From: Nanobdellota archaeon
GTDB lineage: Archaea; Nanobdellota; Nanobdellia; Woesearchaeales; DATGWN01
Assembly (NCBI GenBank): GCA_051819685.1
Contig: JBNJGI010000001.1
Span: 18 to 64,017, forward strand
Length of the DNA: 64,000 bases
Direction of reading: 5' to 3'
Shown: in pieces, positions 8,378 to 55,066 of the stretch
Layout of the letters: every line of letters starts with the position of its first letter
Position numbering within the stretch: the stretch's first letter is position 1
Position numbers and translations under genes: made by a program
Notes under the pieces: generated by a model
Told to the model about the DNA's origin: nothing
Seen by the model: the letters and a program-made list of their open reading frames with translations, nothing else
Databases searched by the model: none

Positions 8378-9430
8378 TTAACTTTCTACAGCACTAATCT
8401 CGATAATACCACTATACTCTCCTGAAGGTATGTTCTTAGGAAGATCAAAACTAATACTGACATTATCCATATTACCCTTTGAGATAAACTTCTCACCATA
8501 ACCATCCACAGTTAAATTTGCAAATCCTTCAAAACCTTCAAGAAGAGCACTAAATACAATATTCTTATTAGCTCTAACACCAATTCTAATATTTACAGTT
8601 TCACCAGGAAGAGCTGCATCACCTTCAATACTTTCAATAAAAAAAGGAGCATTAATGATATCTGCTGATATCCAATCACTAACTCCTCCACTCTTATCCA
8701 AAGCTCTTACAGAAATATTCACCTGATCATTATAAGACACATTGAAATTTGTATTATTTCCTTCCATAATAAAATCCTGTATCGCCATAATAGAATCATT
8801 AAAAATATATTCAAAACCATCAATATCATCATTACCATTAACATCATGAGACAATAAACTTAACATAAGAATATTATCTTCAGCCACAGCAGAAAGATTA
8901 CTAACAACAGGAGCTCCATTAAGAACAATTATATCAACAGAATCCTTATCTTCTTTATAAAAAAAAGGATCAGAAGAAACAAAATCAGCTGAATTATTAC
9001 CAGTATCCGAAACTCTTAACAAAGAATAACCATCACTAACAAGACCTACAGGACTCCCTTCGAAAACCTCACTATCACCATATCCTACAATCTCCTCATT
9101 CAACTTTACAGCGCCTTTATTATTCTGTAATTCGAGATCTCTAATAATATCGAAAGACTCATTCTCACCTATAAAAAAACTGCTCCTTGGAAGAACAGTC
9201 CTCTTTTCAAGACTTCCGTTCCAAACAACATTCCATAAATCATCTCCTGTAGAAGTATAAATATTAAAGCCGACAGTGTTCTGAGGCTCATAAAGGGGGT
9301 TATAGATTTCAATAAATTCTTTTCCATCATCACTACTGTCGGCATTATAGAATATCTGTTTTATCTGCAAGGCTTCAGCGCCTGAAGTCGCTATAATAAG
9401 CATCATCATAATAATAATCATCTTTTTCAT
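8378..9430 (-). CDS. Secreted protein with lamin-tail-domain-like motif (EFIEIYNP) and CARDB-like C-terminal domain
   Basis: N-terminal signal peptide MKKMIIIMMMLIIATSGAEA; LTD signature FIEIYNP; ALPGETVNIRIGVRAN CARDB-like. Confidence 0.55.
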   Translation of the reverse strand: MKKMIIIMMMLIIATSGAEALQIKQIFYNADSSDDGKEFIEIYNPLYEPQNTVGFNIYTSTGDDLWNVVWNGSLEKRTVLPRSSFFIGENESFDIIRDLELQNNKGAVKLNEEIVGYGDSEVFEGSPVGLVSDGYSLLRVSDTGNNSADFVSSDPFFYKEDKDSVDIIVLNGAPVVSNLSAVAEDNILMLSLLSHDVNGNDDIDGFEYIFNDSIMAIQDFIMEGNNTNFNVSYNDQVNISVRALDKSGGVSDWISADIINAPFFIESIEGDAALPGETVNIRIGVRANKNIVFSALLEGFEGFANLTVDGYGEKFISKGNMDNVSISFDLPKNIPSGEYSGIIEISAVES

Positions 9431-11067: not shown

Positions 11068-11194
11068 TCTTATACTTTTTATTTCATAAACATTCTTTAT
11101 CATGAAAATAAAAAATAAACAATCATTAATAAATATTCTCATTGGAATAAAATTTTCAAAATATTTTATAAAAAGAATACGAATTTTTAAAATC

Positions 11195-12310
11195 ATGGCG
11201 AAAAAAATAATAACATCGGAAAGTGTCACAGAAGGTCATCCAGACAAAGTATGTGATAAGATAAGCGATTCATTGCTTGATGCTTACCTTGAACAGGATC
11301 CGGAATCAAGAGTAGCGATAGAAACTTTAGTCAAAGAAAACACAGTCATACTGGCAGGAGAGCTGACAAGCAAAGGAAGTGTAAACATCCAGGAAACAGT
11401 AAAAAAAACATTAAAAGATATCGGATATGACAACGAAGAATTTGGGATGGATCTTAATCTCATCGAAGTAATTTCCAAAATCAACAGGCAAAGCCCTGAT
11501 ATAGCTCAAGGAGTAAATGAAGACGATCATGAACAAGGAGCTGGAGATCAAGGGCTTATGTATGGTTATGCTTCTAACGAAACCGATAACTACATGCCTT
11601 TACCCATTGACTTGGCGCATAAGCTTACAAAAAGATTAAGTGAGGCAAGAAAATCAAAAGAAATAGAAAATTTAGGACCTGATGGAAAAAGTCAAGTATC
11701 TGTAGAATATGAAGATGGAATACCCAAAAGAATTGTAAATGTAGTAATAGCACAGCAACATACAGATGATATAAATGAAGATAAATTAAAACAAGAAATA
11801 AAAGAAAAAATAATAAAACCTGTATGCAATAAATACATAGACGAAAATACAAAATATTATATAAATGGTACAGGAAAATTCATAATAGGAGGACCTGCAG
11901 CTGATGCAGGATTGACAGGAAGAAAAATTATCGTCGATACATATGGTGGAATAGGTCGTCACGGTGGTGGTGCATTTTCAGGAAAAGACCCTTCTAAAGT
12001 TGACAGAAGCGCTGCTTACATGGCAAGACACATAGCTAAAAACATAGTAGCAAAAGGATATGCTGATAGATGTGAACTACAAGTAGCTTATTGCATAGGA
12101 GTTGCAGAACCAATGAGTATTGCGATAAACACTTTCGGAACCTCTAAAATTCCAGGCAAAGATATAGAAAAATGGGTAAGAGATAATTTCAGTCTTAAAC
12201 CGGCAGAAATAATAAAATATCTTGAACTAAAAAAACCAGTATTCTATGAAACAGCCGCTTATGGCCATTTCGGAAGAGAATCTTTCAAATGGGAAAAAAT
12301 AATAGAATAG
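11195..12310 (+). CDS. metK: S-adenosylmethionine synthetase, bacterial/eukaryotic-type (MetK)
   Basis: MAKKIITSESVTEGHPDKVCDKISD, GGGAFSGKDPSKVDRSAAY; TATA-like tattttataaaaag about 25 bp upstream of the ATG at 11195. Confidence 0.9.
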   Translation: MAKKIITSESVTEGHPDKVCDKISDSLLDAYLEQDPESRVAIETLVKENTVILAGELTSKGSVNIQETVKKTLKDIGYDNEEFGMDLNLIEVISKINRQSPDIAQGVNEDDHEQGAGDQGLMYGYASNETDNYMPLPIDLAHKLTKRLSEARKSKEIENLGPDGKSQVSVEYEDGIPKRIVNVVIAQQHTDDINEDKLKQEIKEKIIKPVCNKYIDENTKYYINGTGKFIIGGPAADAGLTGRKIIVDTYGGIGRHGGGAFSGKDPSKVDRSAAYMARHIAKNIVAKGYADRCELQVAYCIGVAEPMSIAINTFGTSKIPGKDIEKWVRDNFSLKPAEIIKYLELKKPVFYETAAYGHFGRESFKWEKIIE

Positions 12311-14662: not shown

Positions 14663-14736
14663 CACTAAAAAAAAACATTTATAAATACAAAGAGAGAAAA
14701 AAGTATATTGAATATAACTTTGCGAGGTGAAAATAA

Positions 14737-14994
14737 ATGAAAAAAGCTCAGGGAATGTCTTTGAACACAATAGTTATCGCTGCCCTAGTAGTAATGATCC
14801 TAGTGGTACTTTCAGTAATCTTCTTAAGATCAGGAGGTAATGTAAGTGAAACAGTAGGAGGATGTGAAGTACAGGGAGGAAAATGCGCAGTTGAATGTGG
14901 TCAAGGCGTATATAACACTGAAGAACATTCAATTAGGAGACCTGATTTGGATGATTCATGTAGTGAAGGAAAAGTATGTTGTATTAAAGGATGA
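14737..14994 (+). CDS. Class-III signal peptide (pilin-like) fused to 6-Cys defensin-like domain (C-x6-C-x3-C-x21-C-x5-CC)
   Basis: MKKAQGMSLNTIVIAALVVMILVV; GGCEVQGGKCAVECGQ...CSEGKVCCIKG; gaggtga SD 7 bp upstream. Confidence 0.7.
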   Translation: MKKAQGMSLNTIVIAALVVMILVVLSVIFLRSGGNVSETVGGCEVQGGKCAVECGQGVYNTEEHSIRRPDLDDSCSEGKVCCIKG

Positions 14995-15260
14995 AAATAA
15001 CAAAAAAATCGCAACAACTATCTTTATCTACTGTAATAATCGCTGCATTGCTTTTATTAGTTCTTGCAGTGATTATCTATATTTTCAGCACAAGATCAGG
15101 AGACTTTAACAAAGGAGTTGGTGAAGTTGCCGGTTGTAAGGAAGAATTTTGTGTAGATAATAAAGATGATTGCAAAAAAATAGAAAATCGGCCTGTTGCA
15201 GTCCCTTCTGATTGTCGTGAATCCGATGAAGTTAGTTATTGTTGCAAACCATTAGGTTAA
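14991..15260 (+). CDS. Paralogous pilin-like signal peptide + 6-Cys domain (C-x4-C-x6-C-x13-C-x8-CC)
   Basis: MKITKKSQQLSLSTVIIAALLLLVLAVIIYIF; 4-bp ATGA overlap with the previous gene. Confidence 0.7.
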   Translation: MKITKKSQQLSLSTVIIAALLLLVLAVIIYIFSTRSGDFNKGVGEVAGCKEEFCVDNKDDCKKIENRPVAVPSDCRESDEVSYCCKPLG

Positions 15261-15263
15261 AAA

Positions 15264-15398
15264 ATGGATCCTACGGAAATAGATTTCGGAAAGACCCGGT
15301 ATCTTACGATAGGGATGGCGGTTGTATTAGTGTTGCTTATACTCATAGTAATAATGGTAATTATGAGTAAACATGCTTCACTCGCATTTGGACAATGA
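15264..15398 (+). CDS. Small (44 aa) single-TM protein, stop overlaps next start
   Basis: MDPTEIDFGKTRYLTIGMAVVLVLLILIVIMVIM; below the ORF-track size cut-off; ATGA overlap with 15395. Confidence 0.4.
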   Translation: MDPTEIDFGKTRYLTIGMAVVLVLLILIVIMVIMSKHASLAFGQ

Positions 15399-16579
15399 AA
15401 AAAATTAAATTTTCAAAGAAAGGAGCTCTAGGTATAGTAATGATGCTTTTCCTTGCTCTTGTAGCTTTTCTTATACTTTTCACTTTCGTAGGAAGATTTC
15501 TTAAAGTAGCAGATGAAGGTTTGCAGAGTGAAATATGCAGAGCGAATATCGCTCTTTTAAATTCAGAAATCAAAGAAAAATCTGATGAAAATTCTGGCAT
15601 TATTGCAAGTACTTGGAATTTAGTTAAAGATAATAATGCCCGAGCAATGCTTAAAAATCCATTATGTACTTCTTTAGTTGAAGTATTTGATTATAGAGAT
15701 GTTAAAGATAAAAACCAATTAAGAAAAAAAGTAGCAACTGATATTGGCGAAATGATGCAAAACTGCTGGAAAACATTTGGTGAAGGAAAACAAGGAAACA
15801 CATTCGGACAGGAAAAAGGTTGGGCAGGAAGAGGAGATAAAAATAACTATTATTTTTCATGCTACAAATTCAAATTTAAAATGAAAGATTCATCTGATAG
15901 CATTTCAATGGAATATTTAAATGGAGATAAAGGACTTCTCTGGAAATATAATGTAGATGGAAAACCCTTATTCAATGAAAATGGAAGACTTTTAGAAAAC
16001 AATAAACTAAAAGATGAAGATAAAATGATTGAAGCTACAATAAAACAATCTTCATTGATGATGCTATATGAAGAATACTATAATAATCCTTCTAGTGATA
16101 AAATACCTTACCTGGGATACATAACTTGGGATGGATATGGATATTATGAATTTGTTAAAAAAACTGCTTCCGGACTGAAAATTGATTCAGCTGGTGAAAA
16201 TGTAGCAAAAGGCGCGATATCAGGAACAACTGCTGGAGTAATTGGAGCTGTAATTGGTACAGGTTTATGTTTTTATTTAGGACCCGGAGCTGTTGGTTGT
16301 GCTGCGTTAGGTAGTGCTATTGCAGGTGGTGCTGCTGCAGGTGGCGCTTCTCTTGCATCAAAAGGTTTAATTGATTCTTTTCAAAATAAAAATGTACCTG
16401 TAATGGCTGATGAATACAAATTAAAAGAAATATATTCTGATCAATACTATGAAGTAAGATACTATTCCCCTTATATAAAAAATATAGATGAAGAAAGCTG
16501 GGTTCTTAACAACATAAAAATCGTACCAATAAACGAAGAAAGTAAAGACAATAAAGAAATTCCGGGAGGAATATCATAA
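15395..16579 (+). CDS. Pilin-like N-terminus protein (394 aa) with Gly/Ala-rich glycine-zipper hydrophobic segment
   Basis: MKKIKFSKKGALGIVMMLFLALVAFLIL; GAISGTTAGVIGAVIGTGLCFYLGPGAVGCAALGSAIAGGAAAGGASLASKG. Confidence 0.65.
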   Translation: MKKIKFSKKGALGIVMMLFLALVAFLILFTFVGRFLKVADEGLQSEICRANIALLNSEIKEKSDENSGIIASTWNLVKDNNARAMLKNPLCTSLVEVFDYRDVKDKNQLRKKVATDIGEMMQNCWKTFGEGKQGNTFGQEKGWAGRGDKNNYYFSCYKFKFKMKDSSDSISMEYLNGDKGLLWKYNVDGKPLFNENGRLLENNKLKDEDKMIEATIKQSSLMMLYEEYYNNPSSDKIPYLGYITWDGYGYYEFVKKTASGLKIDSAGENVAKGAISGTTAGVIGAVIGTGLCFYLGPGAVGCAALGSAIAGGAAAGGASLASKGLIDSFQNKNVPVMADEYKLKEIYSDQYYEVRYYSPYIKNIDEESWVLNNIKIVPINEESKDNKEIPGGIS

Positions 16580-16722
16580 TGAAAAACAAAAAAGCAATGG
16601 AAATGAAAATACTAATGACTTGGCTATTCATAATACTTGCAGCATTGGTCTTTTTAGTTCTAATCGGAATATTTTCAAAAAAAGGATTTGAATTTTTAGA
16701 TGTAATAAACAATATTTTTTAA
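16579..16722 (+). CDS. Small (47 aa) pilin-like N-terminal protein
   Basis: MKNKKAMEMKILMTWLFIILAALVFLVLIGIF; TAATG overlap with previous stop. Confidence 0.45.
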   Translation: MKNKKAMEMKILMTWLFIILAALVFLVLIGIFSKKGFEFLDVINNIF

Positions 16723-16723
16723 G

Positions 16724-18430
16724 ATGAAAAATAAACAAAAAAAAGGAAGCTTCGCACTAATGAAATTAATATCTTACATAATACCTATAATTGTATTCTT
16801 AGTCTTACTAGCTTTTATTTTTCAAGATGATCTTAAAGCTGGAATGATAAATTTTGCAGATAAAAAACAACAAGAAATGGAAGATGCAGGAGAACTTTAT
16901 GAAAACTATGGTGAAGGAAGAAGGAAAACAGGAAATAATGAAATGAAAATACATACGATGAATATAGCTCAGATAATAAGTTCTGCTGAATCTGAAAAAA
17001 AAACTTGCATTATAGATCTATCGTCAGAACCTTACATAAAAAAACCTTATGAAGTATTTGGAAAAACATCAGAAAAAAGTCATTATTCTTATCGGTGTCA
17101 AAACAATATGGAAAACTGCAATTCTAAAATATGTAATGCACAAGGAAACTGCGCTGAATATGAACTGGAAGGCATCAGTAAAATAGTATATTATAGGGAT
17201 GATAAAGGAATGGCTAAGAAAAAAGGATATTCATTCGTTATGGATAAAGTAAAAAACTACATGATAAAAAATGGGCATATTAATGGAATATACTTCCTTA
17301 AAAGCAAAAATAAAAATGAAATTGAGGGAGGTCTTGTAGATTACAAGATAGATATATATTCATCTGAAAACATAGGAAGTGATCTTGAGCTTACAAATAA
17401 AATACAAGATAAAGAACTTAAAAAAAGGTTCTATACAGAACATGCTATAAAATTCTATAATATTCTTATCCTTCTTGACGGCCATGTAAATCTTCCGGGA
17501 ATTTTAGGAGGGTCAGATTTAAAAGAAGAAGACGCTGATTTTTCTGGAATTGAAGTTTGCGAACAAAAAAACAGCAATTTAATTAGTTTCACTGAAAAAG
17601 ATGATAAAAAAGTGAAAAAATATCTTTCTTTAATGGCTGAATCTATAAATAACGCTAAAAAAGAAAACTGCATAATAAAACTAAAATCTGATTTTTCTCT
17701 TGAAGAAGAAAAAGAATACTATTTTGGATTTTACAAAGAAAACAATAAAAACTTCCTTAAAGATGATATAAAGACATTAAACTATTATGATTTTGAAGAA
17801 AATCCTGATTTAGATTCAAGTAGTTCATTCGAAGAATTAAGAACAGGTTATAATTCATTAGAAGAAGAAGGAGAAAAATGGAAAAGAGCTATGATGATAT
17901 CAGAACATTTTAAAAATAAAGGTGATAAAGAATTAGCAAAAAAATGGAAACAAGAAGCAATGGAAATCAAAAATCCGTTCCTTACTAATTATGATATTAA
18001 CTCTGATACTAAAGAAAACCTTATAGGAGAAGTAGAAAGTTTTGATATAGAAAAACCGATAGATGATAAATATAAAAAATTCGGAGTAATTTATGATCGG
18101 GATTTTGTTTTTAATCACATAGAAGAAATTGGAAAAATAATAAAAGCAATAAAAGATAAAGATATAATCATAACATCTCTTACATTGCCTCCTTCAAAAG
18201 AGCTTAAAGTATCTGGTTATGATTCTATTTTTTTCAATATTATAAAAGAAAACGGTATGTTTGTAAAAGATAAAAATTATTATGCCGGTTTTGAAGGAGA
18301 CTTATCCGAAACTATAAAAGTTTCAAAAAAATATCTTATAAAAGCCGGTAACAATATTTATTTTTATAGTTCAAAAGGAAATGAAATTGATATAAATGAG
18401 ATAGATAAAGAATATATTTGTGAGGGATAA
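16724..18430 (+). CDS. Large (568 aa) secreted/anchored protein with class-III-like N-terminus and Cys-rich segment
   Basis: MKNKQKKGSFALMKLISYIIPIIVFLVLLAF; CQNNMENCNSKICNAQGNCAEYE. Confidence 0.6.
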   Translation: MKNKQKKGSFALMKLISYIIPIIVFLVLLAFIFQDDLKAGMINFADKKQQEMEDAGELYENYGEGRRKTGNNEMKIHTMNIAQIISSAESEKKTCIIDLSSEPYIKKPYEVFGKTSEKSHYSYRCQNNMENCNSKICNAQGNCAEYELEGISKIVYYRDDKGMAKKKGYSFVMDKVKNYMIKNGHINGIYFLKSKNKNEIEGGLVDYKIDIYSSENIGSDLELTNKIQDKELKKRFYTEHAIKFYNILILLDGHVNLPGILGGSDLKEEDADFSGIEVCEQKNSNLISFTEKDDKKVKKYLSLMAESINNAKKENCIIKLKSDFSLEEEKEYYFGFYKENNKNFLKDDIKTLNYYDFEENPDLDSSSSFEELRTGYNSLEEEGEKWKRAMMISEHFKNKGDKELAKKWKQEAMEIKNPFLTNYDINSDTKENLIGEVESFDIEKPIDDKYKKFGVIYDRDFVFNHIEEIGKIIKAIKDKDIIITSLTLPPSKELKVSGYDSIFFNIIKENGMFVKDKNYYAGFEGDLSETIKVSKKYLIKAGNNIYFYSSKGNEIDINEIDKEYICEG

Positions 18431-18432
18431 AA

Positions 18433-18708
18433 ATGAAAAATAAAAAATCAATGCAAATGTCATTACAGACAGTCATAGTGGGAGTTATTTTATTATTAGT
18501 ATTGGCAGTGATAATATACATATTCACCTCAAGGATGGGCGAACAGAATGAAGCAGTAGGGGATTTGCAAGGAAGTGTAACAGATAAATGTATTGATGAA
18601 GATGGAAACATAAAAGAAGATTGCGAATACACAAAAAATCTTAATGAAGGTTATATAATACCTTTAATACCTTTTATAAGAAAAAAATATTTTTTAAAAA
18701 GAACATGA
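18433..18708 (+). CDS. Pilin-like small protein (91 aa)
   Basis: MKNKKSMQMSLQTVIVGVILLLVLAVIIYIF, same N-terminal subfamily as 14737/14991. Confidence 0.65.
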   Translation: MKNKKSMQMSLQTVIVGVILLLVLAVIIYIFTSRMGEQNEAVGDLQGSVTDKCIDEDGNIKEDCEYTKNLNEGYIIPLIPFIRKKYFLKRT

Positions 18709-19316
18709 AACAAAATAAAAAAGCCGGAGTTACCATATCGTTGCATGCGCTGATGGGAATAATAATTTCAGCCTTATTGATCTTCTTTGGTTTAGGTCTT
18801 ATGATGAAAATTTTCTATACTCCTAATTACGAAAAAGAAGTTTTGAATTTCTGGAAAGAAGATATAGAAGAATTAAAATCTGGATACTTCACGCAATTAC
18901 TTGATGTTGAAACAAAAAAATTCAATTCAAACAGATATTTACTTGTAATGATACCTAAAAATTATAATGCAGTTACGCTTAAAGCTGAATCAAGGGGTAA
19001 TTTTGATTTTAGGATAAAAAACAAATGCAACAATAAAATATGCTTATGCATAGCTGATATAGAAAAACAAAGAAGCAGATATTGCAAAAGCCTAAGCTTC
19101 AAAAACATGAGATTCTATTCTGAAGGCGTAAATAATGAAATAAGAAAACAAAACCCGACACCTGATGATGGAATAATTAATGAGCCTGTTATATTCAATA
19201 AAAATTATGATATACAAAAAAAATATGATTACACGAAAACACCTTTCGTGATGAACAGAAACAACAATGAGATAGTAGTATGCGATACAAGAAGACTGTG
19301 TGAAGAAAATGCTTAA
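18705..19316 (+). CDS. Pilin-like/N-terminal TM protein (203 aa)
   Basis: MKQNKKAGVTISLHALMGIIISALLIFFGLGL; ATGA overlap. Confidence 0.55.
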   Translation: MKQNKKAGVTISLHALMGIIISALLIFFGLGLMMKIFYTPNYEKEVLNFWKEDIEELKSGYFTQLLDVETKKFNSNRYLLVMIPKNYNAVTLKAESRGNFDFRIKNKCNNKICLCIADIEKQRSRYCKSLSFKNMRFYSEGVNNEIRKQNPTPDDGIINEPVIFNKNYDIQKKYDYTKTPFVMNRNNNEIVVCDTRRLCEENA

Positions 19317-20202
19317 TATTTTCAAAAAAGACAAAAAAGGTATGACTTTAGTTATGCTGATAGAAATAATTCTTATGGTCTCTTTTGCAATATTTATAAT
19401 GTTCGGAGCAGAAAAAATAATATCTCATGAAGCTAAATACAGAGAATTGGATGTCAATAATCTTGGGCTTTTTCTTGAAAGAGCACCTTCCATACCATAT
19501 AATTTTTATTATAAAATAAACTTCAAAAATAATTACAGTCTTGAAATTAATGAAAAAAAAGTCCTTCTTGACAAGCCCGATATGATAAATAAAAGATACA
19601 TATATGACCTTTCAGATCTCGGTACATATTCAGTGGATATAAAATTCAAAAACATCAAAAACATTCACATCTATAAAATCGGCAATGATATGCACATAAA
19701 AAAATCCTATGATAACAACTTAGCTGACAGGATAATAAAAGAAAAAACAGAAAAAAAACCTCAAAAGATTAATTTCTATTATGAAGGTACTTCATCTTTA
19801 AGAACATCTATAAATTCCCACGATAAATTCAAACTAAAATCTCAGGAGAACGCTCTTGAGGATAAAAAAATTCCAATAATTATAATAGAAGAAAAAAAAG
19901 GCAAACCTGATATAGGCATATTCTATAATCCTGCATCTAAAGAAACAGCAAAAATATTATACAACGCAGCACTTGAAACCATCTATGAAGAATATAAAAA
20001 TATTTTTGAAAAAGAAGACAAATATTATCCTTCCTTTCAGGATAAGATAAAATATTATCCGATTAAAGACTATAAATTCATAAAAGATAATGACATAGAA
20101 AGAAAAGGTGATCTGTTAAAAACACCAATAATTCATCTTGAGATTTATGACAATAATAAAAAACAAAAATACATGGATGAAATTATAAAAGCCCTTAGAT
20201 AA
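19309..20202 (+). CDS. Prepilin-like protein (ATG at 19309; track shows GTG-extended 19300)
   Basis: MLNIFKKDKKGMTLVMLIEIILMVSFAIF (KKG|MTLV...E resembles pilin cleavage motif). Confidence 0.55.
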   Translation: MLNIFKKDKKGMTLVMLIEIILMVSFAIFIMFGAEKIISHEAKYRELDVNNLGLFLERAPSIPYNFYYKINFKNNYSLEINEKKVLLDKPDMINKRYIYDLSDLGTYSVDIKFKNIKNIHIYKIGNDMHIKKSYDNNLADRIIKEKTEKKPQKINFYYEGTSSLRTSINSHDKFKLKSQENALEDKKIPIIIIEEKKGKPDIGIFYNPASKETAKILYNAALETIYEEYKNIFEKEDKYYPSFQDKIKYYPIKDYKFIKDNDIERKGDLLKTPIIHLEIYDNNKKQKYMDEIIKALR

Positions 20203-20203
20203 A

Positions 20204-20695
20204 ATGATGAAAGATAAAAAAGCTATAGCAGACATTTTTACAATAATGTCAAGAATGGGATATTATGTATTCGCAATCCTTATAGCTTCCGCATTATTTC
20301 TTTTCATCGGAGTTCTATTGAAAATGGGTTCTATAGATTATTACAAAAGCGATTATGGAACAGGTGCTATAAATCTTGAAGAAAGATTCTTTAATGAATT
20401 CGCTTATGAAGATGAATTTACAGGAAAAAAATATGCAAGAACGATGGATATTCCCAAAATAAAAAAAATTTCAAAAAAACAGCAATTAGATAATATAATG
20501 GGTGTAAGAGGAAAAAATTCGAAAAAAGGACTTAAAGTCACTATCTTTTCTAAAGAAAAATCAAAAATACTTGAAGTATCCACTTCTAATTACCCTCAAA
20601 CACATGATTCTTACAAAAAAAAATATCCTATAATGATATATGAAAACGATAAATTCCAGGCAGGATTTATCGAAATGAGGTATTGGCAACCATGA
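20204..20695 (+). CDS. N-terminal TM protein (163 aa) of pilin-like operon
   Basis: ORF; hydrophobic segment YYVFAILIASALFLFIGVLL. Confidence 0.5.
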   Translation: MMKDKKAIADIFTIMSRMGYYVFAILIASALFLFIGVLLKMGSIDYYKSDYGTGAINLEERFFNEFAYEDEFTGKKYARTMDIPKIKKISKKQQLDNIMGVRGKNSKKGLKVTIFSKEKSKILEVSTSNYPQTHDSYKKKYPIMIYENDKFQAGFIEMRYWQP

Positions 20696-21258
20696 AAAGT
20701 AAAAGAAGCCAGACAACACTAGTAGTAAATATAACTTTCGGAGTAATCTTTGTAATAGCAGTTTTTTTTGCATACCTTTTCATAGACCATGAATTCAAGA
20801 AACTGAAAGATATGGAAATAATAGAATTCCAGGAAATAGACAGTGCTTCAGCATATATATCCACATTGAAAGAAGCTGACAAAGATGCAGTTAAGGATCT
20901 TATTTCTATAAATAAAAAGATAATTGACAATATGGTAGAAAGTGATACAGCAGAAGGGAGACAGAAAGATAGGATAAAATACTATAAGACTTTCAGAAAT
21001 GAAATAGGGAAAGAAAGTAATGCTGACTTTTCTCCTGAGTATTGGGTACTTAGATATTATCCTCTAATAAAAGACAATGAGCTGGAACTATTTGTTCCTG
21101 CCACTCTTTTTTTCGGAAAAGGAAAAGACCCTTATGAATTAGACTGCTCAAATTTTGGTGAAGCAGGGATATACACTTGGAATCCTTCAGTAAATCCTAA
21201 TCTTCAAATAAGTACATTTTACAAAGAATACTGCAAGCTAATGGTGTTAAAAAAATGA
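20692..21258 (+). CDS. Pilin-like protein (ATG at 20692; track TTG-extended)
   Basis: MKSKRSQTTLVVNITFGVIFVIAVFF (KRS|QTT motif shared with pilins at 32040 and 40998); ATGA overlap. Confidence 0.55.
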   Translation: MKSKRSQTTLVVNITFGVIFVIAVFFAYLFIDHEFKKLKDMEIIEFQEIDSASAYISTLKEADKDAVKDLISINKKIIDNMVESDTAEGRQKDRIKYYKTFRNEIGKESNADFSPEYWVLRYYPLIKDNELELFVPATLFFGKGKDPYELDCSNFGEAGIYTWNPSVNPNLQISTFYKEYCKLMVLKK

Positions 21259-22010
21259 TAAGGAAATTTTCAAAAAAAGGCGTATCAATTTTCATAGTAG
21301 CTCTTATAATGTTTTTTCTCCTGGGATCCCTTACAATAGCAGTACATGAGATAACAAACAGAATAGATTTCCGTGAATATGCAGGAAAAGATGCAGCAGT
21401 CTTGACAAGATTACAAAGAATAACCGAAAGCCATATATTTTTTATTGAGACAGTAGCTGAAGATTACTTTAAAAACAAAGCATCAGATTACGAAGAAGCT
21501 ATTAAAGGAGTCAAGTTCGAGCTTGAAAATACTACAAAACAAAAATATGAAATGCAGAAAAATCTATTCTTAAAAAATCTTGAACAAAAATTCAATAATT
21601 ATTATAAACAAAAAGCAGAAACCTATAATAATTACATACAGGATAATATCAGAAAAAGAGATGGATATTTTCTTGATAAAAATATTGATTTCAAACTATA
21701 CTCTTATAAAGACAAGCTCAAAGGAATTGCTTTAAAAAAACAAATAATTTCATCATGGAAAAAATCCGGAGGATATTTACATTACTTTCCTCATTTCAGT
21801 ATAAATATGCCTGAATTAAAAATGCTGAAAAATATAGAAAAAATAAAAAAAGAAAGAGTAAAATTAGAAAAATGTCTCATAGAACAAGATAATTTCGATA
21901 ACTGCAGGAAAAAATCTGATCTTGATATTCAAGGAGATTATAATAACAAAATAGCTGATCTTGAAATCAACATAGACGGATTCATATATCTTATAGAATT
22001 CAAAGTATAA
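21255..22010 (+). CDS. Pilin-like N-terminus protein (251 aa)
   Basis: MIRKFSKKGVSIFIVALIMFFLLGSL; ATGA overlap. Confidence 0.55.
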   Translation: MIRKFSKKGVSIFIVALIMFFLLGSLTIAVHEITNRIDFREYAGKDAAVLTRLQRITESHIFFIETVAEDYFKNKASDYEEAIKGVKFELENTTKQKYEMQKNLFLKNLEQKFNNYYKQKAETYNNYIQDNIRKRDGYFLDKNIDFKLYSYKDKLKGIALKKQIISSWKKSGGYLHYFPHFSINMPELKMLKNIEKIKKERVKLEKCLIEQDNFDNCRKKSDLDIQGDYNNKIADLEINIDGFIYLIEFKV

Positions 22011-22398
22011 TTAAATAAAAAATAATCGTTAATATAATACCTGAAACAATACCTGTAAGTACTTCTGGAACAGAATGTCCGATTCTTTCATCCATTTCTT
22101 TCTTTTTTGACAATTTATTAAGCTTCAAAGAATGATTTTGCAACTCTCTTCTTAAACCTAATGCATCTCTTATAAAAAGTGCTGAAAATATCAGAGATAC
22201 AGCAAAAACAATGCTAAAACCTTCAATCAAAAAAACAGAAGTGCATAAAGCTGCAACAAGTGAGGCATGGCTACTTGGCATCCCTCCATATGAAAAAAAC
22301 CCTTTAGAACCATATCCTTTATTAATCAATGGTTTGACTACTTGTGTAAGCATTACAATGATAATACAATTAATTATTACAAATAAAGTTCCATCCAT
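22000..22398 (-). CDS. Divergent PAP2/DUF212-family membrane protein
   Basis: GGMPSSHASLVAAL motif, multiple TM segments. Confidence 0.55.
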   Translation of the reverse strand: MDGTLFVIINCIIIVMLTQVVKPLINKGYGSKGFFSYGGMPSSHASLVAALCTSVFLIEGFSIVFAVSLIFSALFIRDALGLRRELQNHSLKLNKLSKKKEMDERIGHSVPEVLTGIVSGIILTIIFYLIIL

Positions 22399-23231: not shown

Positions 23232-23915
23232 TTATTTTTTCCTTAAAAATTTCCTGAGTTCATTATTAATTTTATTGAAATCAGGAAACAATTTTTCTTC
23301 CTTCTTGAATTCTGATGTATGATGCATCCTCTTTCCAGTATCAGATGAACGGAACTTATGCTTCTTATGAAGCATCTCATGATAGACAACATACTTTAAA
23401 TATTTTTTTTCGTTTTCCTGCAAATCCTTAAATACTCTGCTTATAGTAATCTTATCCTTAGTGTAACTATAATGCCCTAAAGTCCTTTTAGAATATTTGC
23501 CCCAATCTATAGATGAGACTTCAATTTCTCCAGAAAAATAAATATTATTTATATCTTCAAAAATTTTCAAAAGATAGGGGTCAGAATACTTCTTTTCCGG
23601 ATATTTACCCAAATTAGCTATAAAATGATCATAAATATCCATATTAATAGTTCTATTCCTATTGATTCTGAAAATCTTTTTCATAAGAGATTGTAAAAGC
23701 CCTATAACAATATCTTTAGAAACATCTTTCCACTTATAGCTCAAATTAAAATTATATTCTTTATTCTTGTATTTAACATTAGCATTAAAATCACTAAAAC
23801 GCCTTGAATAAGACAAACTCATATCGAAATTATCGAAATTAACATCAGGTTCAAGCATTTCATAAGCATTTCTTAATAATTCGTTCTCCATTTTATTTTT
23901 TAGAATTAAGGTCAT
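23232..23915 (-). CDS. DUF45/YgjP-like zinc metallohydrolase (HExxH)
   Basis: YVVYHEMLHKKH. Confidence 0.55.
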   Translation of the reverse strand: MTLILKNKMENELLRNAYEMLEPDVNFDNFDMSLSYSRRFSDFNANVKYKNKEYNFNLSYKWKDVSKDIVIGLLQSLMKKIFRINRNRTINMDIYDHFIANLGKYPEKKYSDPYLLKIFEDINNIYFSGEIEVSSIDWGKYSKRTLGHYSYTKDKITISRVFKDLQENEKKYLKYVVYHEMLHKKHKFRSSDTGKRMHHTSEFKKEEKLFPDFNKINNELRKFLRKK

Positions 23916-25677
23916 TAGGAATCTTTAAAACAAATTCTGAACCTTTATTAAGCTTACTATTCAATGTTATATTTCCATGATGAAGCTCTATAATATGTTT
24001 AGATATAGTCAAACCCAAACCACTTCCTTTAATATTTCTTTTCATATGCCCTTCTGCTTGTAAAAATGGTTGGAATATATTTTTCTGATCTTTCTTTGAA
24101 ATACCTATACCTGTATCTTTTATTCTTATAGTACAATAATTCTTTCCGCTATTTATCTTAACAAATATCTTGCCGTTATTAGGAGTAAATTTAATAGCAT
24201 TACCTACAAGATTATAAATGACTTGATATATCTTATCTTTATCATGAGCAATAAACAAAGATTTCCTTCCTTCCCTTTCCAGAGAAATATTCTTATTTTT
24301 TATCTGTATCATAAGACTATCGATAGCTCCTTTCACTGTATTTACAATATCCTCATCCTGTAAATTTAATGTACTTCGGCCTGATTCAAGTCTTGAAAGA
24401 TCAAGAATATCATTAATCAGATTAGATAACCTTTTACTTTCGTTATCAATAACACTTATACTTTCCTTTTGCTTATCATTAATATCCCCTAATCTTTCTG
24501 AAAGAAGCAAAGAAGCATAACCTCTTATAGAAGTCAAAGGAGTTCTAAGTTCATGAGAGACGACAGAGACAAACTCTGATTTAAGATTATTCATTCTCCT
24601 TAATTCAATATTTGCATCCCTCAATTCTTTAGTAGCTGAATTAACTTTCTTCTGCAACTCTTTCTCTCTGAGCTTATAAGCCTCCTCAAGCTCTTTCTGA
24701 AGAATTATATTTTCAGATACATCTCTTATCATAAGAACAGTTCCATCAAAATCGCTCAATTTACTTTTCAATGGATAAGAAAGGATATTTAGATATCTCG
24801 TATTACCTTCTTCATTCTCAAATTTAATATATTTAATCTCATGGTCTTTCATATAAAAAGAAGTATTCTTTACAATTTTCTTAACATTATCCATGTTTTT
24901 CTTTTTGCTGAAAATTTGTAGAAAATTTTTTCCTAAAATATTATTCTCATCTAACTGAAATAATTTACTTGCATTATCGTTCCATAATACAACATTATCA
25001 TTAGAATTATCTATACCTATAAGACCAACAGGAAGATTATCGACAATATTCTGATACACATTTTCAAGAACTTCTATAGTTTTAGAAAAATGTGAAAGTC
25101 TGCTTGAAAGATTGATAGATTGAAGCCCGAAAGCAAAGTGATCTATAATAATCCTCAAATAATCATAATCTCCATAATTAAACTTATTCTTTTTTGTACC
25201 GAAAAAAAATGCTCCGAAAGTATTTTTCTGAAGATAAAATTTAATAACATGCAAATAACTATAATCCGAATAGCTTTTAGAATAAGAAAGATAATTATTC
25301 AACTTTACATCTTCTTTTGATATATTAAAATAATGTCTTGTATTTTCTATTCTTTTTACAAAATTATCTGAAACTTCTATACTACTATGGCCTTTAATGC
25401 TATCATAAATACATGAGAAATTTCTATTAACTGGATCGCAAAAAACAATACCTCCGAATAAAACTCCTGGAGTCATATCTACAATTGTAGAAAGGGCTTT
25501 TTTAGATATATCTTTAAGATTTTTCTGTTTATAGAAACTTTTACTCACTTCGAAAAGAACCCTTAACCTTTCATTCATAGATTTGTTAAATTTCTTTTTA
25601 TTATTTATTAGAATAAATCCCAGAATAAAGACAGAAACGACAAGTATACTTAATTCCGCGATAAGCAGGTTAACCAT
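23893..25677 (-). CDS. Sensor histidine kinase (N-terminal TM, PAS-like, HisKA, HATPase)
   Basis: VSVVSHELRTPLTSIRGYASLL H-box; GLGLTISKHIIELHHGNI G-box. Confidence 0.85.
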   Translation of the reverse strand: MVNLLIAELSILVVSVFILGFILINNKKKFNKSMNERLRVLFEVSKSFYKQKNLKDISKKALSTIVDMTPGVLFGGIVFCDPVNRNFSCIYDSIKGHSSIEVSDNFVKRIENTRHYFNISKEDVKLNNYLSYSKSYSDYSYLHVIKFYLQKNTFGAFFFGTKKNKFNYGDYDYLRIIIDHFAFGLQSINLSSRLSHFSKTIEVLENVYQNIVDNLPVGLIGIDNSNDNVVLWNDNASKLFQLDENNILGKNFLQIFSKKKNMDNVKKIVKNTSFYMKDHEIKYIKFENEEGNTRYLNILSYPLKSKLSDFDGTVLMIRDVSENIILQKELEEAYKLREKELQKKVNSATKELRDANIELRRMNNLKSEFVSVVSHELRTPLTSIRGYASLLLSERLGDINDKQKESISVIDNESKRLSNLINDILDLSRLESGRSTLNLQDEDIVNTVKGAIDSLMIQIKNKNISLEREGRKSLFIAHDKDKIYQVIYNLVGNAIKFTPNNGKIFVKINSGKNYCTIRIKDTGIGISKKDQKNIFQPFLQAEGHMKRNIKGSGLGLTISKHIIELHHGNITLNSKLNKGSEFVLKIPNDLNSKK

Positions 25678-25681
25678 TTGC

Positions 25682-26653
25682 TCAGTGTTTTATTGTATCG
25701 ATAACCAATGACATCTTCTTAAAATCACCTTTATTATCATTACCGGTATAAAGGTAAGGAAGTGTTTCAGTAAACCTTTTCTTCATCTCATCGATACTTT
25801 TACTTATATCTTTTGAAGAAAATATAGTAAAAATATTATCTTCAATATGTCCTATAAAATTATTTTCATCTTTAATACAATCCATTATCATCTTTCCGAT
25901 CAATTGAATTGTCTCATAACTTTTCTTATGACCAAAAAACTTAACATAATCATCAAAATGATTCACCTTGACCTTAATTTCATACCATGAATTCTTTTTA
26001 TCCCATATATTCTTATTCTCTTCTGCAATTATCTTTGATGGAATCCCTGTAATTGGATTCACGGAATAAAGGCCTTCTTTTACTTTAAGTCTGCTTTGTA
26101 TTCTGGCTTCAAGCTCAAGAGGGTCAAAAGGCTTAGTAATGTAATCATCTGCTCCCATATCCATTAGATTAACCTTATCTTTGATTTCACCTTTTGCAGA
26201 AAGGATAATTACAGGTATATTTTTAGTTAATACATTTCTTTTCACTTCTTTACATAAATCTTCTCCACTTTTTTTTGGCATCATAAGATCAAGAACAATT
26301 ATATCTGGAATTATTTTATTGATCATCTCGGATGCTTTTTCTCCATCATAAGCTTCATAAATATCATATCTGCCTTCAGAAAGACTTAACCTTATAAGAT
26401 CCACAATATTCTTCTCATCATCAGCTACAAGCACTCTGAATTTCTTTGAAAATTCAGCCAATTTCCAATACATAGCTGAAGCTATCTTCGTTGAAGTGAC
26501 TAACTTTTCTGCTTTAAGGATCTGAAGATATTTTCCGATAGTAATACGATTATGATTTATTCTATTTGCTATTTCAGAAGCTGAAGCTCCAGCAGGATTT
26601 TCTCTCAAAAAAGATATAATTTTACTTTTTATTTCAAAATCACTTGAATTCAT
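25682..26653 (-). CDS. Response regulator: N-terminal winged HTH + REC + degenerate GGDEF-like domain
   Basis: REC: VLVADDEKNIV...IIVLDLMMPKKSG...ILSAKG; C-terminus NPITGIPSK...VNHFDDYVKFFGHKKSYETIQLIGKMI...NNFIGHIEDNIF resembles GGDEF with motif degenerated. Confidence 0.6.
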   Translation of the reverse strand: MNSSDFEIKSKIISFLRENPAGASASEIANRINHNRITIGKYLQILKAEKLVTSTKIASAMYWKLAEFSKKFRVLVADDEKNIVDLIRLSLSEGRYDIYEAYDGEKASEMINKIIPDIIVLDLMMPKKSGEDLCKEVKRNVLTKNIPVIILSAKGEIKDKVNLMDMGADDYITKPFDPLELEARIQSRLKVKEGLYSVNPITGIPSKIIAEENKNIWDKKNSWYEIKVKVNHFDDYVKFFGHKKSYETIQLIGKMIMDCIKDENNFIGHIEDNIFTIFSSKDISKSIDEMKKRFTETLPYLYTGNDNKGDFKKMSLVIDTIKH

Positions 26654-32039: not shown

Positions 32040-32531
32040 TTAACTACTGGTTCTTTCACCTTCCAGTCTATTACCATCACCATCGAATGTGTATTGTGCA
32101 TTATTATCCACATTAGTATATTCAACATCCAATGTATAAGAGTACCTTTCACCTGGGTTAGCTACATCAAGTGTTTGATTTGTAAAAACAAACTCTCCAA
32201 TATCACCTTGTGCAAGTGTTGGATTATATGAAGCATTTGTAACAGTTGTTCCTTCTGCATTACTTAAGGACACACTTGTAATCTTTATTGTATTAGGCAT
32301 ATTATTTGTTAGCTTTAAGCTTACATTTGTCGCATTTGCAGGTACTGTCATACTAGCTACACCTATTTTAGCTGTTTTCCAATAAGTTGATCGTGAACCA
32401 GCTTTTGCGCCTCCACCAATACTTGGAATTCCTCCTAGAACAGCAACAACAATTAAAGCTATCACTATTACAACAGCCAGAATAATTAGATATTCAGTTG
32501 CTGTTTGACTTTTTCTTTTTTTCATAAACAT
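32040..32531 (-). CDS. Archaeal type IV pilin-like protein (class III signal peptide), many N-glycosylation sequons
   Basis: MFMKKRKSQTATEYLIILAVVIVIALIVVAVLGG. Confidence 0.7.
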   Translation of the reverse strand: MFMKKRKSQTATEYLIILAVVIVIALIVVAVLGGIPSIGGGAKAGSRSTYWKTAKIGVASMTVPANATNVSLKLTNNMPNTIKITSVSLSNAEGTTVTNASYNPTLAQGDIGEFVFTNQTLDVANPGERYSYTLDVEYTNVDNNAQYTFDGDGNRLEGERTSS

Positions 32532-40997: not shown

Positions 40998-41429
40998 TCA
41001 TTCTTTTTTAAGCATAATTTTAGGCCCGTCCATTGTATAATTCTTATCGTTCTTTAAATTCTTATAATTGAACTTAACTACAGCAGAAGGAGAATCCACA
41101 CTTATATCCAGTTTATAAGTTTCTCCCGGAGTCAAATATTTATTCAATGAAAAAGTATTTTCATCAATTTCTATGGATGTAATATTTATGTTATAAGGAA
41201 GATTATTCTGTATAATCGCTTCAAGTTTTTCTCCATCCCATTTAATTTCCTTAAGTGCTATATCAGAAGATGCCCAGATACTCCTTGATTGTGATATTTT
41301 TTTATCATCAGCAAGACTTGTAAGATTGACAATTGTACCTGTAAGAATTAAAAGAAAAGCTATGACTACTGATATAATAATTATAAACTCCACAGTTGTT
41401 TGCGTTTTTTTTCTAAAAAACATCTTCAA
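40998..41429 (-). CDS. Pilin-like protein (class III signal peptide)
   Basis: MKMFFRKKTQTTVEFIIIISVVIAFLLIL. Confidence 0.65.
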   Translation of the reverse strand: MKMFFRKKTQTTVEFIIIISVVIAFLLILTGTIVNLTSLADDKKISQSRSIWASSDIALKEIKWDGEKLEAIIQNNLPYNINITSIEIDENTFSLNKYLTPGETYKLDISVDSPSAVVKFNYKNLKNDKNYTMDGPKIMLKKE

Positions 41430-54142: not shown

Positions 54143-55066
54143 ATGATTTCGACAGATATAATTAGTAACACTACATTAATCATAGGATTTTTAGGACTCT
54201 TTATTGGCACTATTACTGATTTTAAGAAACGTGAAGTGCCTGATTGGCTTAATTTTTTTCTTATATTTTCAGGATTGGGATTAAGTATAATAGGAGCTAT
54301 ATATTATAAAGATATATTCTATATAATAATACCGCTGATATGGCTTTTAGTTGCATATCTTATAAGTGCCATAATGTATTATTCCGGCCAATGGGGTGGC
54401 GGTGATTGCAAAATGATAATGGGTATCGCAACACTATTCGGAATCACCACTTTTGCAATCTCGGATCCAATAAGATATCTTCTGGAAAATTATATAACTC
54501 TTCCTTTCACATATAACATATCCTTTTTTGCAAATTTCATATTCAACAGTTTTGTAATTGGAGCTTTCTATGGAGTTGCATGGATAATATACTATATAAT
54601 AAGCAATTACCGAAAATTCATAGATACTTTGAAGCAAAAACTGAAAACATATAAAAAATTCATATATTTTGTATTGATATTTTTCCTTATAGCTACAATA
54701 TCCATAGCTCTTCTCAATCTATTCAATTGGCATTCATTCTTATTATTATTAATGATACTCCTTTTTCCATTCTTAATTTATTCGGTAAAAAGTGTTGAAG
54801 AATCATGCATGATAAGAGATATGAAAATAAAAGATCTCACAGAAGGAGAATGGATCGCTGAAGATATAGAAATTGACGGAAAAGAAATATGCAAATCAAA
54901 AGAACTTGGTCTCACACCTAAACAATTAAATAAACTGAAAAAACTTGAAAAGAAAGGAAAAATCGAAAAAGTAAAAGTAAAAGTAGGAATACCTTTCGTA
55001 CCGGCTTTCTTCCTCTCATTTATCTTTACTATAATATACGGAAATTTCGTGATATTATTCATATAG
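54143..55066 (+). CDS. A24-family archaeal prepilin/preflagellin peptidase (PibD/FlaK-like)
   Basis: TITDFKKREVPD (first catalytic Asp region) and GQWGGGDCKMIMGIA (GGGD second Asp motif); polytopic; TATA-like atttataaatg upstream. Confidence 0.75.
   Translation: MISTDIISNTTLIIGFLGLFIGTITDFKKREVPDWLNFFLIFSGLGLSIIGAIYYKDIFYIIIPLIWLLVAYLISAIMYYSGQWGGGDCKMIMGIATLFGITTFAISDPIRYLLENYITLPFTYNISFFANFIFNSFVIGAFYGVAWIIYYIISNYRKFIDTLKQKLKTYKKFIYFVLIFFLIATISIALLNLFNWHSFLLLLMILLFPFLIYSVKSVEESCMIRDMKIKDLTEGEWIAEDIEIDGKEICKSKELGLTPKQLNKLKKLEKKGKIEKVKVKVGIPFVPAFFLSFIFTIIYGNFVILFI

Follow-up and report, generated by a model that had tools for sequence, protein, structure and literature searches.

Makarova, Wolf and Koonin (2019; PMC6393860) describe, in some DPANN genomes, 'dark-matter' genes that carry signal peptides, lie beside FlaI/TadC and probably encode diverse pilins. 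The pili islands in their Fig. 2A resemble in outline the locus that is the subject of this report, an operon of 12 genes (g1 to g12) in a 64-kb stretch of DNA from a Nanobdellota archaeon (contig JBNJGI010000001.1; the whole stretch is called the window below): in both, runs of unannotatable genes encode proteins with N-terminal signal-like helices, and these proteins are interpreted as varied, fast-evolving pilins. However, those islands are recognised by the adjacent FlaI/TadC-type genes, whereas the cassette in the window stands alone; it also has a conserved 12-gene order and two definable protein families, the MKKAQG six-cysteine proteins and the g4 family. We read the operon, with moderate confidence, as encoding the subunits and accessory proteins of a type IV filament (TFF) system that is peculiar to Nanobdellota/Woesearchaeota-type DPANN archaea and whose motor genes are not adjacent here. 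Since divergent pilins in the DPANN dark matter have already been published, the advance is one of definition and scope, not of concept.

Other described systems share parts of this outline. According to the accessible part of a 2026 census (bioRxiv 10.64898/2026.04.22.720090), TFF 'system 1', Aap-like and 4A systems occur in some DPANN archaea, system 1 with many pilins and accessory proteins; that part does not mention a detached multi-pilin cassette. Pilin genes outside type IV pilus (T4P) loci are typically singletons or tandems (Makarova et al. 2016), which makes a conserved stand-alone cassette of 12 genes unusual. The Epd system of Methanococcus maripaludis (MMP1685, EpdA-C and EppA; PMC3875500) likewise combines several class III pilins, often with Gln at +1, with a dedicated A24 peptidase. 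Yet its minor pilins lie with their own ATPase and platform genes, unlike the window cassette, whose products match neither the DUF361 nor the Class_IIIsignal families and lack the Q-x-S-x-E motif. The bacterial operons FimU-PilVWXE, GspH-K and ComGC-GG are also translationally coupled and made up of prepilin genes only, in some species apart from the ATPase gene, and pair one small, abundant subunit with several larger, scarcer ones that initiate the fibre or sit at its tip. On the other hand, bacterial minor pilins have a G/F-T-L-x-E site (here and below a solidus marks the cleavage site), N-methylation and known folds without homology to the cassette, which is larger (10-11 candidate pilins) and also encodes membrane peptides of 44-47 amino acids (aa). 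Modular pilins such as PilB of Streptococcus sanguinis (PMC8179133) join a pilin N terminus to an extra module, an outline that g6 and the hydrolases of two related loci (see below) would fit, although the putative modules of the window proteins have no family match. Finally, the substrates of the Sulfolobus bindosome (Bas) are sugar-binding surface proteins that form no filament but have prepilin-type signals and a T4P-like assembly ATPase; the cassette, in contrast, is associated with neither solute-binding domains nor genes for ABC transporters. The Nanobdellota/Woesearchaeota are an abundant group, nearly all of it uncultivated, whose members are believed to live in attachment to other cells.

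Operon structure and N-terminal signals

Twelve plus-strand open reading frames (ORFs) fill positions 14737-22010 with junctions of -17 to +3 nucleotides (nt), so that the tight packing described in an earlier note on this DNA was borne out. Starting g11 at ATG 20692 and g9 at ATG 19309 turns the two largest overlaps into an ATGA-type overlap and one of -8 nt. The minus strand inside this interval holds no ORF longer than 98 aa. Upstream of g1 lies a 212-bp region, divergent from ychF, with a TATA-box-like and a Shine-Dalgarno-like element (Table 1). A TATA-like (A)CATTTATAAATA or TTTATATATA stands at a similar distance before the first small gene in the related loci L081, L088, L086, L148, L085, L110 and L125 (L numbers denote loci in other contigs), and in 9 of 10 relatives inspected GAGGTG or a one-mismatch variant precedes the ATG by 5-9 nt. 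Because both elements are present and recur in relatives, the prediction that a single archaeal promoter serves the operon and that its first gene is Shine-Dalgarno-led is well supported by the sequence.

The earlier note had held that every gene begins with a class III (type IV prepilin-like) signal. Under a relaxed test, which asks for [KR][GAS] and then, within 8 aa, a 15-aa stretch with a Kyte-Doolittle mean of at least 2.2, 10 of the 12 products pass, or 11 if g10 is counted by eye; g3 fails. Only 2 of the 142 remaining ORFs of the window (154 ATG-started ORFs of at least 40 aa in total) pass the same test, one being the gene at 32040 and the other a transmembrane (TM) helix of FtsX. The claim thus stands for most of the operon and falls for g3, whose acidic N terminus and basic C terminus point to an inverted topology; for g10 it is doubtful. 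The uncharged run that follows the basic leader is 20-28 aa long (15 in g9, which has an internal Glu) and has no A-x-A end. By inspection, none of the operon products has a Sec-type (class I) signal with an h-region of roughly 7-15 residues and an A-x-A site, in agreement with the earlier view that these are not ordinary Sec signals. Such signals do occur in the window, with an A-x-A-like end as in MKKIIMLIAIIMVMPLALA/ANN, in the proteins encoded at 3467-8335 (plus strand), 8378-9430 (minus) and 60573-61796 (plus). These large surface proteins comprise a 1622-aa FG-GAP/MopE-like protein, one with a weak lamin-tail-domain match and a CARDB protein; as they carry Sec signals, they would be exported by the ordinary route.

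The same N-terminal pattern is found in related cassettes: of 166 ORFs, 159 begin with a hydrophobic segment, which in 138 cases is directly preceded by [KR][GAS] (about 87% or more); at least five apparent exceptions regain the motif from an upstream in-frame start and look like start-codon miscalls. In a control set of 1180 ORFs taken from 80 Woesearchaeota loci, 146 have such a segment, with the motif in 37 (25%). Orthologues likewise keep the motif, even where their mature parts share only 19-40% identity. In register, KKA/QGMSLN aligns with KKS/QSMTLN, KKG/VELSMN and KKG/MEMSLS, and KKS/QQLSLS and KKS/MQMSLQ follow the same scheme. Because paralogue and orthologue alignments agree, the predicted cleavage site likely lies after KK[A/S/G], which for the small proteins is two residues upstream of the site after Q(G/Q) suggested before. 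These comparisons support the conclusion that the N termini behave like class III signals, unlike those of Sec substrates, as far as sequence can tell. The conservation of the MKKAQG leader fits recognition by a processing enzyme and would be hard to explain for a mere anchor.

A cassette conserved among relatives

The genes had been taken for lineage-specific ORFans, a description that does not hold. All but g3 are paired by phmmer with a positional partner in other contigs (11 of 12; E values from 1e-53 for g4 to 2e-7 for g6), the g1 and g4 families are large, and the cassette recurs in many contigs. The ORFan impression is due mainly to sparse sampling. Searched against 185,579 species representatives, YchF has its best match in Woesearchaeota-type metagenome-assembled genomes (MAGs), at only 68% identity, so no close genome is present among those representatives. 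At least three other Nanobdellota/Woesearchaeota contigs hold cassettes that are orthologous gene for gene. Cassettes of this kind with the layout of the window are found in L081 (85-87-(uncalled 47)-360-46-239-85-242-234-148-177-295 aa) and L088 (89-88-(uncalled)-403-41-485-96-213-267-170-180-439 aa), and rearranged, partly duplicated ones with two g4 copies in L086 and L148. Looser versions occur in about 15 further contigs. In L084, L095, L112, L113, L124, L125 and L136 (GC 0.30-0.38) they keep the same order of small genes, a tiny peptide, a g4-like gene, another tiny peptide, a giant of 922-1237 aa, a small gene and four or five mid-sized genes. The cassette-bearing Nanobdellota/Woesearchaeota contigs range in GC from 27 to 47%. 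Identity to the L081/L088 partners runs from 19% (g11) to 65% (g1); judged by sequence, the proteins are divergent, but not extraordinarily so. Profiles built without the first 38 aa find only the query itself for g6, g8, g11 and g12, and only close orthologues for g4, g9 and g10, so that the orthology of several genes rests on full-length scores and position. The operon is thus a conserved Nanobdellota/Woesearchaeota cassette, probably no one-off.

The conservation extends to the right flank. A convergent DUF212 gene, slightly overlapping the last cassette gene, follows in the same position and orientation in L081 (15999-16391), L088 (11925-12323) and L148 (7683-7967), and its product in the window is 40-44% identical to those of L081 and L088. 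The arrangement may be a matter of conserved synteny, or it may point to a functional connection such as lipid-phosphate chemistry at the membrane. The left flank is not conserved, as none of 80 Woesearchaeota loci scanned for synteny around the upstream YchF/OLA1 gene carries cassette homologues.

Two families are the hallmarks of the cassette. The first comprises the MKKAQG six-cysteine small proteins (g1, g2 and g7), whose profile collects 37 proteins of 56-105 aa, all unnamed and none with a Pfam domain. In an alignment of 28 members of the g1 family, M1, K3, A4, Q5 and G6 are invariant, as are Cys 50, 75, 81 and 82, and Cys 43 and 54 are nearly so; the remainder of the head varies. The MKKAQG pattern also served in a metagenome scan to find further relatives, and a metagenome scan with the g4 patterns found nothing. 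The second family is that of g4, recognised by the motifs EICxANI, CWxxFGEGK, NYYFxCYKFK and YYEVRYYSPY..IKIVP. An exhaustive HMMER search of 1.84 billion cluster representatives returned 922 clusters (at 50% identity) with E<=1e-3, 18 of them with E<=1e-30. Most matches cover the N-terminal 150-190 positions of the profile, a region in which none of 76 sampled members has a Pfam domain; those members that bear a name are from MAGs of Woesearchaeota and Nanoarchaeota. The AlphaFold model of g4 (predicted local distance difference test score 78.5, confident) consists of an N-terminal helix of 55 residues (8-63) followed by an alpha/beta domain, a predicted outline like the 'lollipop' of pilins. 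A Gly/Ala-rich hydrophobic insert (window 16180-16330, residues ~264-320) is present in most members and predicted to be disordered. We considered whether this stretch forms a second TM hairpin, which would exclude a pilin role, and rejected the idea as a general feature, the insert being variable, absent from the members P0042, P0043 and P0045 and predicted disordered. Its weak matches (E 0.02-0.1) to the AGAAAAGA region of prion proteins are compositional.

What had seemed an ORFan block has thereby become a definable and searchable cassette, marked by its gene order, the MKKAQG leader, the six-cysteine family, the g4 family with its >900 clusters and the TATA/Shine-Dalgarno signals. It offers concrete targets for metaproteomics, cryo-electron tomography and heterologous cleavage assays.

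Several observations concern the related contigs. In L082 (13958-20264) and L083 (14335-20264) the cassette runs on the same strand into genes for NlpC/P60 (757 aa), Amidase_3 (352/361 aa) and SLT (at least 720 aa) proteins, peptidoglycan hydrolases, although these archaea do not themselves possess peptidoglycan; the three proteins share N termini of the K-[GA]-plus-helix type, and we flag this variant cassette with cell-wall hydrolases. A second conserved pilin-like cluster, 'set B', is often found directly before the cassette (L088:2196-4274, L124:6528-9385, L125:4061-6545, L082:2793-5316, L083:2632-5237) and is also seen at L118:6755-8773 and L123:3380-4913. It combines a protein of about 345-365 aa that has an ...IE(V/I)QFNWIF... 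start with two or three smaller ones (about 160-190 aa) whose starts read K[GS]/Q, and a Big_13/TSP3 surface protein of 1000-1300 aa sometimes adjoins it; the window has no set B. Many public MAGs titled 'uncultured Methanosarcinales archaeon' (L001, L003, L009 and others; also L086, GCA_964557345.1) carry Woesearchaeota/Nanobdellota-type genes, among them a YchF 62-68% identical to that of the window, and the cassette itself, so that the organism label looks wrong.

Processing and assembly genes

An A24 peptidase at 54143, as the earlier note had it, is the candidate processing enzyme: it matches FlaK_Arch (4.7e-13, below the curated cut-off) in addition to the families given in Table 1, and both catalytic Asp motifs (...TD26F... 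and GGGD) are intact. The earlier note was also right about two additional pilin-like genes, at 32040 and 40998, which prove to be paralogues and share K[ST]/QTxxE[YF] N termini. Stand-alone pilins are usually major pilins (PMC4858521), and on this ground the two may be major pilins; a cassette that supplies minor pilins or a pseudopilus would agree with that.

In rare relatives the cassette is tied in cis to the motors of type IV filaments. The divergent loci L139 and L141 encode a TadA/FlaI-type ATPase of 759-762 aa; its stop codon overlaps the start codon of the next gene, whose product of 693-694 aa has 8-9 predicted TM segments (694 aa and 9 segments in L141). In L141, which lies on a 723-kb contig, this pair (T2SSE 7.6e-15, TadA family 9e-35 and FlaI 3e-33 for the ATPase) heads a same-strand string of two MKKAQG genes and then eight others, most with a K-[GA]-plus-helix start; the last of the string belongs to the g4 family and aligns at the hallmark Cys and CW..G.GK motifs (E 2.5e-13). 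The pair also lies upstream of MKKAQG genes in L139. Position and topology are the grounds on which we infer that the membrane protein is the platform. In L103, an A24 peptidase (Peptidase_A24 and Arc_PepC) is encoded 1.5 kb from MKKAQG genes.

Proposed assembly and alternative explanations

In the TFF reading that we prefer, one transcript would run from the TATA box upstream of g1 and be translated with coupling; the coupling is read from the sequence and the transcription is predicted. Ten or eleven products would insert with the N terminus inside by their hydrophobic helix of 20-28 residues. The A24 aspartyl peptidase would then remove the basic leader of 3-10 residues after KK[G/A/S], as the conservation of the motif and the presence of the enzyme suggest. 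A TadA/FlaI-type ATPase and a polytopic platform, encoded elsewhere in the genome, would extract the processed proteins into a filament or short pseudopilus, a step proposed because relatives carry such ATPase and membrane-protein genes in cis. The repetitive or core subunits would most likely be g1, g2 and g7. Low-copy 'minor pilin', tip or adhesin components would be g4, g6 (large and variable), g8, g9, g11 and g12. Three others, the bitopic g10 and the peptides g3 and g5, may instead serve as membrane-resident assembly factors. The role would most likely be contact with another cell or surface, a speculation whose only grounds are the habit of DPANN archaea, which in culture are typically episymbionts, and the variability of the protein at the g6 position.

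A number of observations weigh against a TFF system. The larger ORFs of the window contain no T2SSE or T2SSF domain, so that the absence of pilus ATPase and platform genes reported in the earlier note still stands, and of the 18 longer loci from relatives, 16 have neither gene within 10 kb of the cassette. Where motor genes do adjoin, the small proteins of L139 and L141 resemble g1 over their N-terminal 40-50 residues only, and the 693/694-aa membrane protein has no T2SSF match. None of the operon products matches a described pilin family (Class_IIIsignal/DUF361-type, archaeal flagellin N-terminal domain, NCBIfam) at E<=1, and the head of g4 has no similarity to solved pilins and no analogue in the PDB by fold or sequence search. 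The FlaFind-type check proposed in the earlier note gave a largely negative answer: g9 matches the strict pattern [KRDE][GA][ALIFQMVED][ILMVTAS]x3 and the other 11 products fail it, with G, Q, E or N in positions +2 to +4. As that pattern was derived from other phyla, the failure weakens the pilin claim and does no more. In addition, g3 has its inverted topology, g10 a charged spacer and a non-conserved site, and the canonical solo pilins at 32040 and 40998 could themselves be the real filament subunits. What survives of the pilin-like system proposed earlier is its core, supported indirectly by the class-III-like N termini, the A24 peptidase and the linkage of relatives' cassettes to an ATPase or an A24 peptidase; the notions that it is lineage-specific and that every gene encodes a pilin do not survive. 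We do not regard g3 as a plausible pilin, and g10 and possibly g5 are doubtful.

The absence of motor genes in cis from most loci, the lack of homology to known pilins and the failure of the strict FlaFind pattern would all be expected if the products were uncleaved bitopic (type II signal-anchor) proteins of a non-filament membrane or envelope complex, with K-K-[GAS] merely a positive-inside determinant. Both g3 and g10 look like membrane-resident elements, as does the hydrophobic, Gly-rich insert in g4, and the bacterial T4P accessory proteins PilN and PilO have a bitopic outline as well. We nevertheless consider this explanation unlikely, given the small residue after the last Lys or Arg in ~87% or more of the 159 cassette proteins against 25% of controls, the almost invariant MKKAQG leader and the linkage of the cassette to an ATPase (L139 and L141) and an A24 peptidase (L103). 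Less plausible by far is an integrated virus or mobile element coding for small membrane proteins, which we strongly disfavour: its genes would be many, short, overlapping and unannotated, as here, but the GC content equals that of the flanks, genes for an integrase, for replication or for a capsid are lacking, the g4 and g1 profiles find no relatives in IMG/VR, and the chromosomal synteny with DUF212 is conserved in four loci. Against these stand two weak matches, of g3 to an inovirus coat protein (E 0.031, far below the cut-off) and of g7 to a PHROG 'secreted protein' (E 0.0019, sub-threshold and the only PHROG match).

The remaining alternatives concern the kind of filament. A short, non-adhesive pseudopilus for enzyme secretion or display, or for DNA uptake, comparable to GspG-K of the type II secretion system (T2SS) or to ComG of Gram-positive bacteria, seems to us rather unlikely, though it deserves serious consideration. 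Like ComGC-GG and GspG-K, which combine a small major subunit with larger minor ones, the operon encodes one to three very small 'major' and five to eight larger 'minor' subunits, and the solo pilins at 32040 and 40998 could supply the adhesive pilus. The run from cassette head to NlpC/P60, Amidase_3 and SLT genes with K-[GA]-plus-helix N termini in L082 and L083 favours this reading, but neither the window nor its closest relatives (L081, L088, L086 and L148) have such hydrolase genes. The window cassette, moreover, has no secretin, ComEC-like channel or identifiable cargo, and to our knowledge Archaea have no established T2SS-like system. Distinctly improbable, in our view, is a DPANN-specific host-engagement organelle in which pilin N termini load a diversifying, modular tip that recognises and breaches the envelope of a partner cell, the tip being formed by the g4-fold protein, the giant protein at the g6 position and, in some lineages, the NlpC/P60, amidase and lytic transglycosylase hydrolases. 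If it were true, some Woesearchaeota-type archaea would be wall-piercing symbionts or predators of bacteria.

Individual genes and surroundings

None of the 12 products has a match in Pfam, NCBIfam, PHROGs or the PDB, in accordance with the earlier remark that the mature domains show no recognised motif. Further details of single genes are as follows. The g3 gene is omitted from the NCBI annotation, to judge by locus-tag numbering, and its equivalents at the same position are uncalled in L081 and L088 and called in L084 and L085. The g5 product may be a pilin-like subunit of very small size or else a membrane peptide; with its start corrected, the orthologue L088_07 reads ...SRKG/MAMRT. The g6 protein is identical to the NCBI hypothetical protein ACQER9_00070. 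A word-indexed search of 5.8e9 proteins returned only g6 itself, an exact-sequence look-up gave no record, and no PDB or Pfam match was found; its weak positional orthologue is L088_08 (2e-7), and the protein at this position spans 239-1237 aa across other loci. All three g8 orthologues keep [KR]A/[GA]. In g10, KKA is followed by a polar spacer of 12 residues, and L081_09 has neither K-[GA] nor an upstream start that would restore it. The listed ORF of g11 begins at a TTG (20683; 191 aa).

Table 1. Positions of the cassette genes and of other features in the window; a solidus marks the predicted cleavage site, and E values of orthologues are in brackets.
Feature	Position	Strand	Remarks
TATA-box-like element TTTATAAATA	14678..14687	+	~50 nt upstream of g1, read directly; promoter function predicted
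Shine-Dalgarno-like GAGGTG	14724..14729	+	7 nt before g1 ATG
g1, small pilin-like protein, six-cysteine head	14737..14994	+	85 aa; MKKA/QGMSLNTIV...; orthologues L081_01 (4e-33), L088_04 (1e-29)
g2, g1 paralogue	14991..15260	+	89 aa; KKS/QQLSLSTVI...; start overlaps g1 stop (ATGA)
g3, single-helix membrane peptide	15264..15398	+	44 aa; not class-III-like; acidic N terminus, basic C terminus, no K/R-G site
g4, hallmark protein	15395..16579	+	394 aa; SKKG/ALGIV... leader; four conserved Cys and motifs
g5, mini-protein	16579..16722	+	47 aa; KKA/MEMKILMTW...; orthologues L081_04 (2e-12), L088_07 (3e-11), L082_05 (3e-5)
g6, large variable protein	16724..18430	+	568 aa; QKKG/SFALMK...; most divergent cassette position
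g7, third small pilin-like paralogue	18433..18708	+	91 aa; KKS/MQMSLQTVIV...; orthologue L088_09 reads KKG/MEMSLSTVIV
g8, pilin-like protein	18705..19316	+	203 aa; NKKA/GVTISLHALMG...; orthologues L088_10 (1e-18), L086_05 (1e-17), L081_07 (7e-7)
g9, pilin-like protein	19309..20202	+	297 aa (300 with alternative GTG start 19300); DKKG/MTLVMLIE...; only strict FlaFind match; orthologues L088_11 (5e-25), L081_08 (6e-19), L086_06 (3e-16; start-corrected KKA/EIFF)
g10, bitopic protein, doubtful pilin	20204..20695	+	163 aa; conserved FD(L/I)xxx(L/M)GY(Y/W) between KK[AG] and helix; orthologues L088_12 (4e-35), L086_08 (1e-31), L081_09 (4e-19)
g11, pilin-like protein	20692..21258	+	188 aa; SKRS/QTTLVVN...; ATG 20692 gives ATGA overlap with g10; orthologues L088_13 (2e-8), L081_10 (9e-8), L086_09 (6e-6)
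g12, pilin-like protein	21255..22010	+	251 aa; SKKG/VSIFIVAL...; last gene of cassette; orthologues L086_10 (1e-15), L081_11 (1e-9), L088_14 (4e-9)
DUF212 (divergent PAP2) membrane protein	22000..22398	-	Pfam 4.5e-28; convergent, overlaps g12 3' end by 11 nt
Solo pilin-like gene	32040..32531	-	KRKS/QTATEYLIIL...; candidate major pilin, canonical archaeal type
Second solo pilin-like gene	40998..41429	-	RKKT/QTTVEFIII...; paralogue of 32040 (E 3e-14)
A24 prepilin/preflagellin-type peptidase	54143..55066	+	Peptidase_A24 1.2e-10, Arc_PepC_II 4.4e-6; candidate processing enzyme in trans

The window is AT-rich (GC 0.25-0.34) and contains the archaeal markers Orc1/Cdc6, aIF2-gamma, the A24 peptidase with Arc_PepC_II and an RNase Z-type metallo-beta-lactamase. 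At 11102-12310 (plus strand) it encodes an S-adenosylmethionine synthetase of the bacterial/eukaryotic MetK type, with S-AdoMet_synt N, M and C domains; as this type is not usual in archaea, the gene may have been acquired horizontally. Some 2 kb downstream of the cassette, at 23893-26653 (minus strand), a two-component pair is encoded, with a PAS-HisKA-HATPase sensor kinase beside a response regulator with an N-terminal winged helix-turn-helix and a weak GGDEF-like C terminus. Three consecutive large ORFs (1186, 490 and 701 aa) with overlapping junctions occupy 44375-51490 (plus strand); their products are very rich in Asn, Ser, Glu and Lys, with no signal sequence and no significant Pfam match, and the AT skew of this region, 0.36-0.48, is strikingly high compared with the remaining window.

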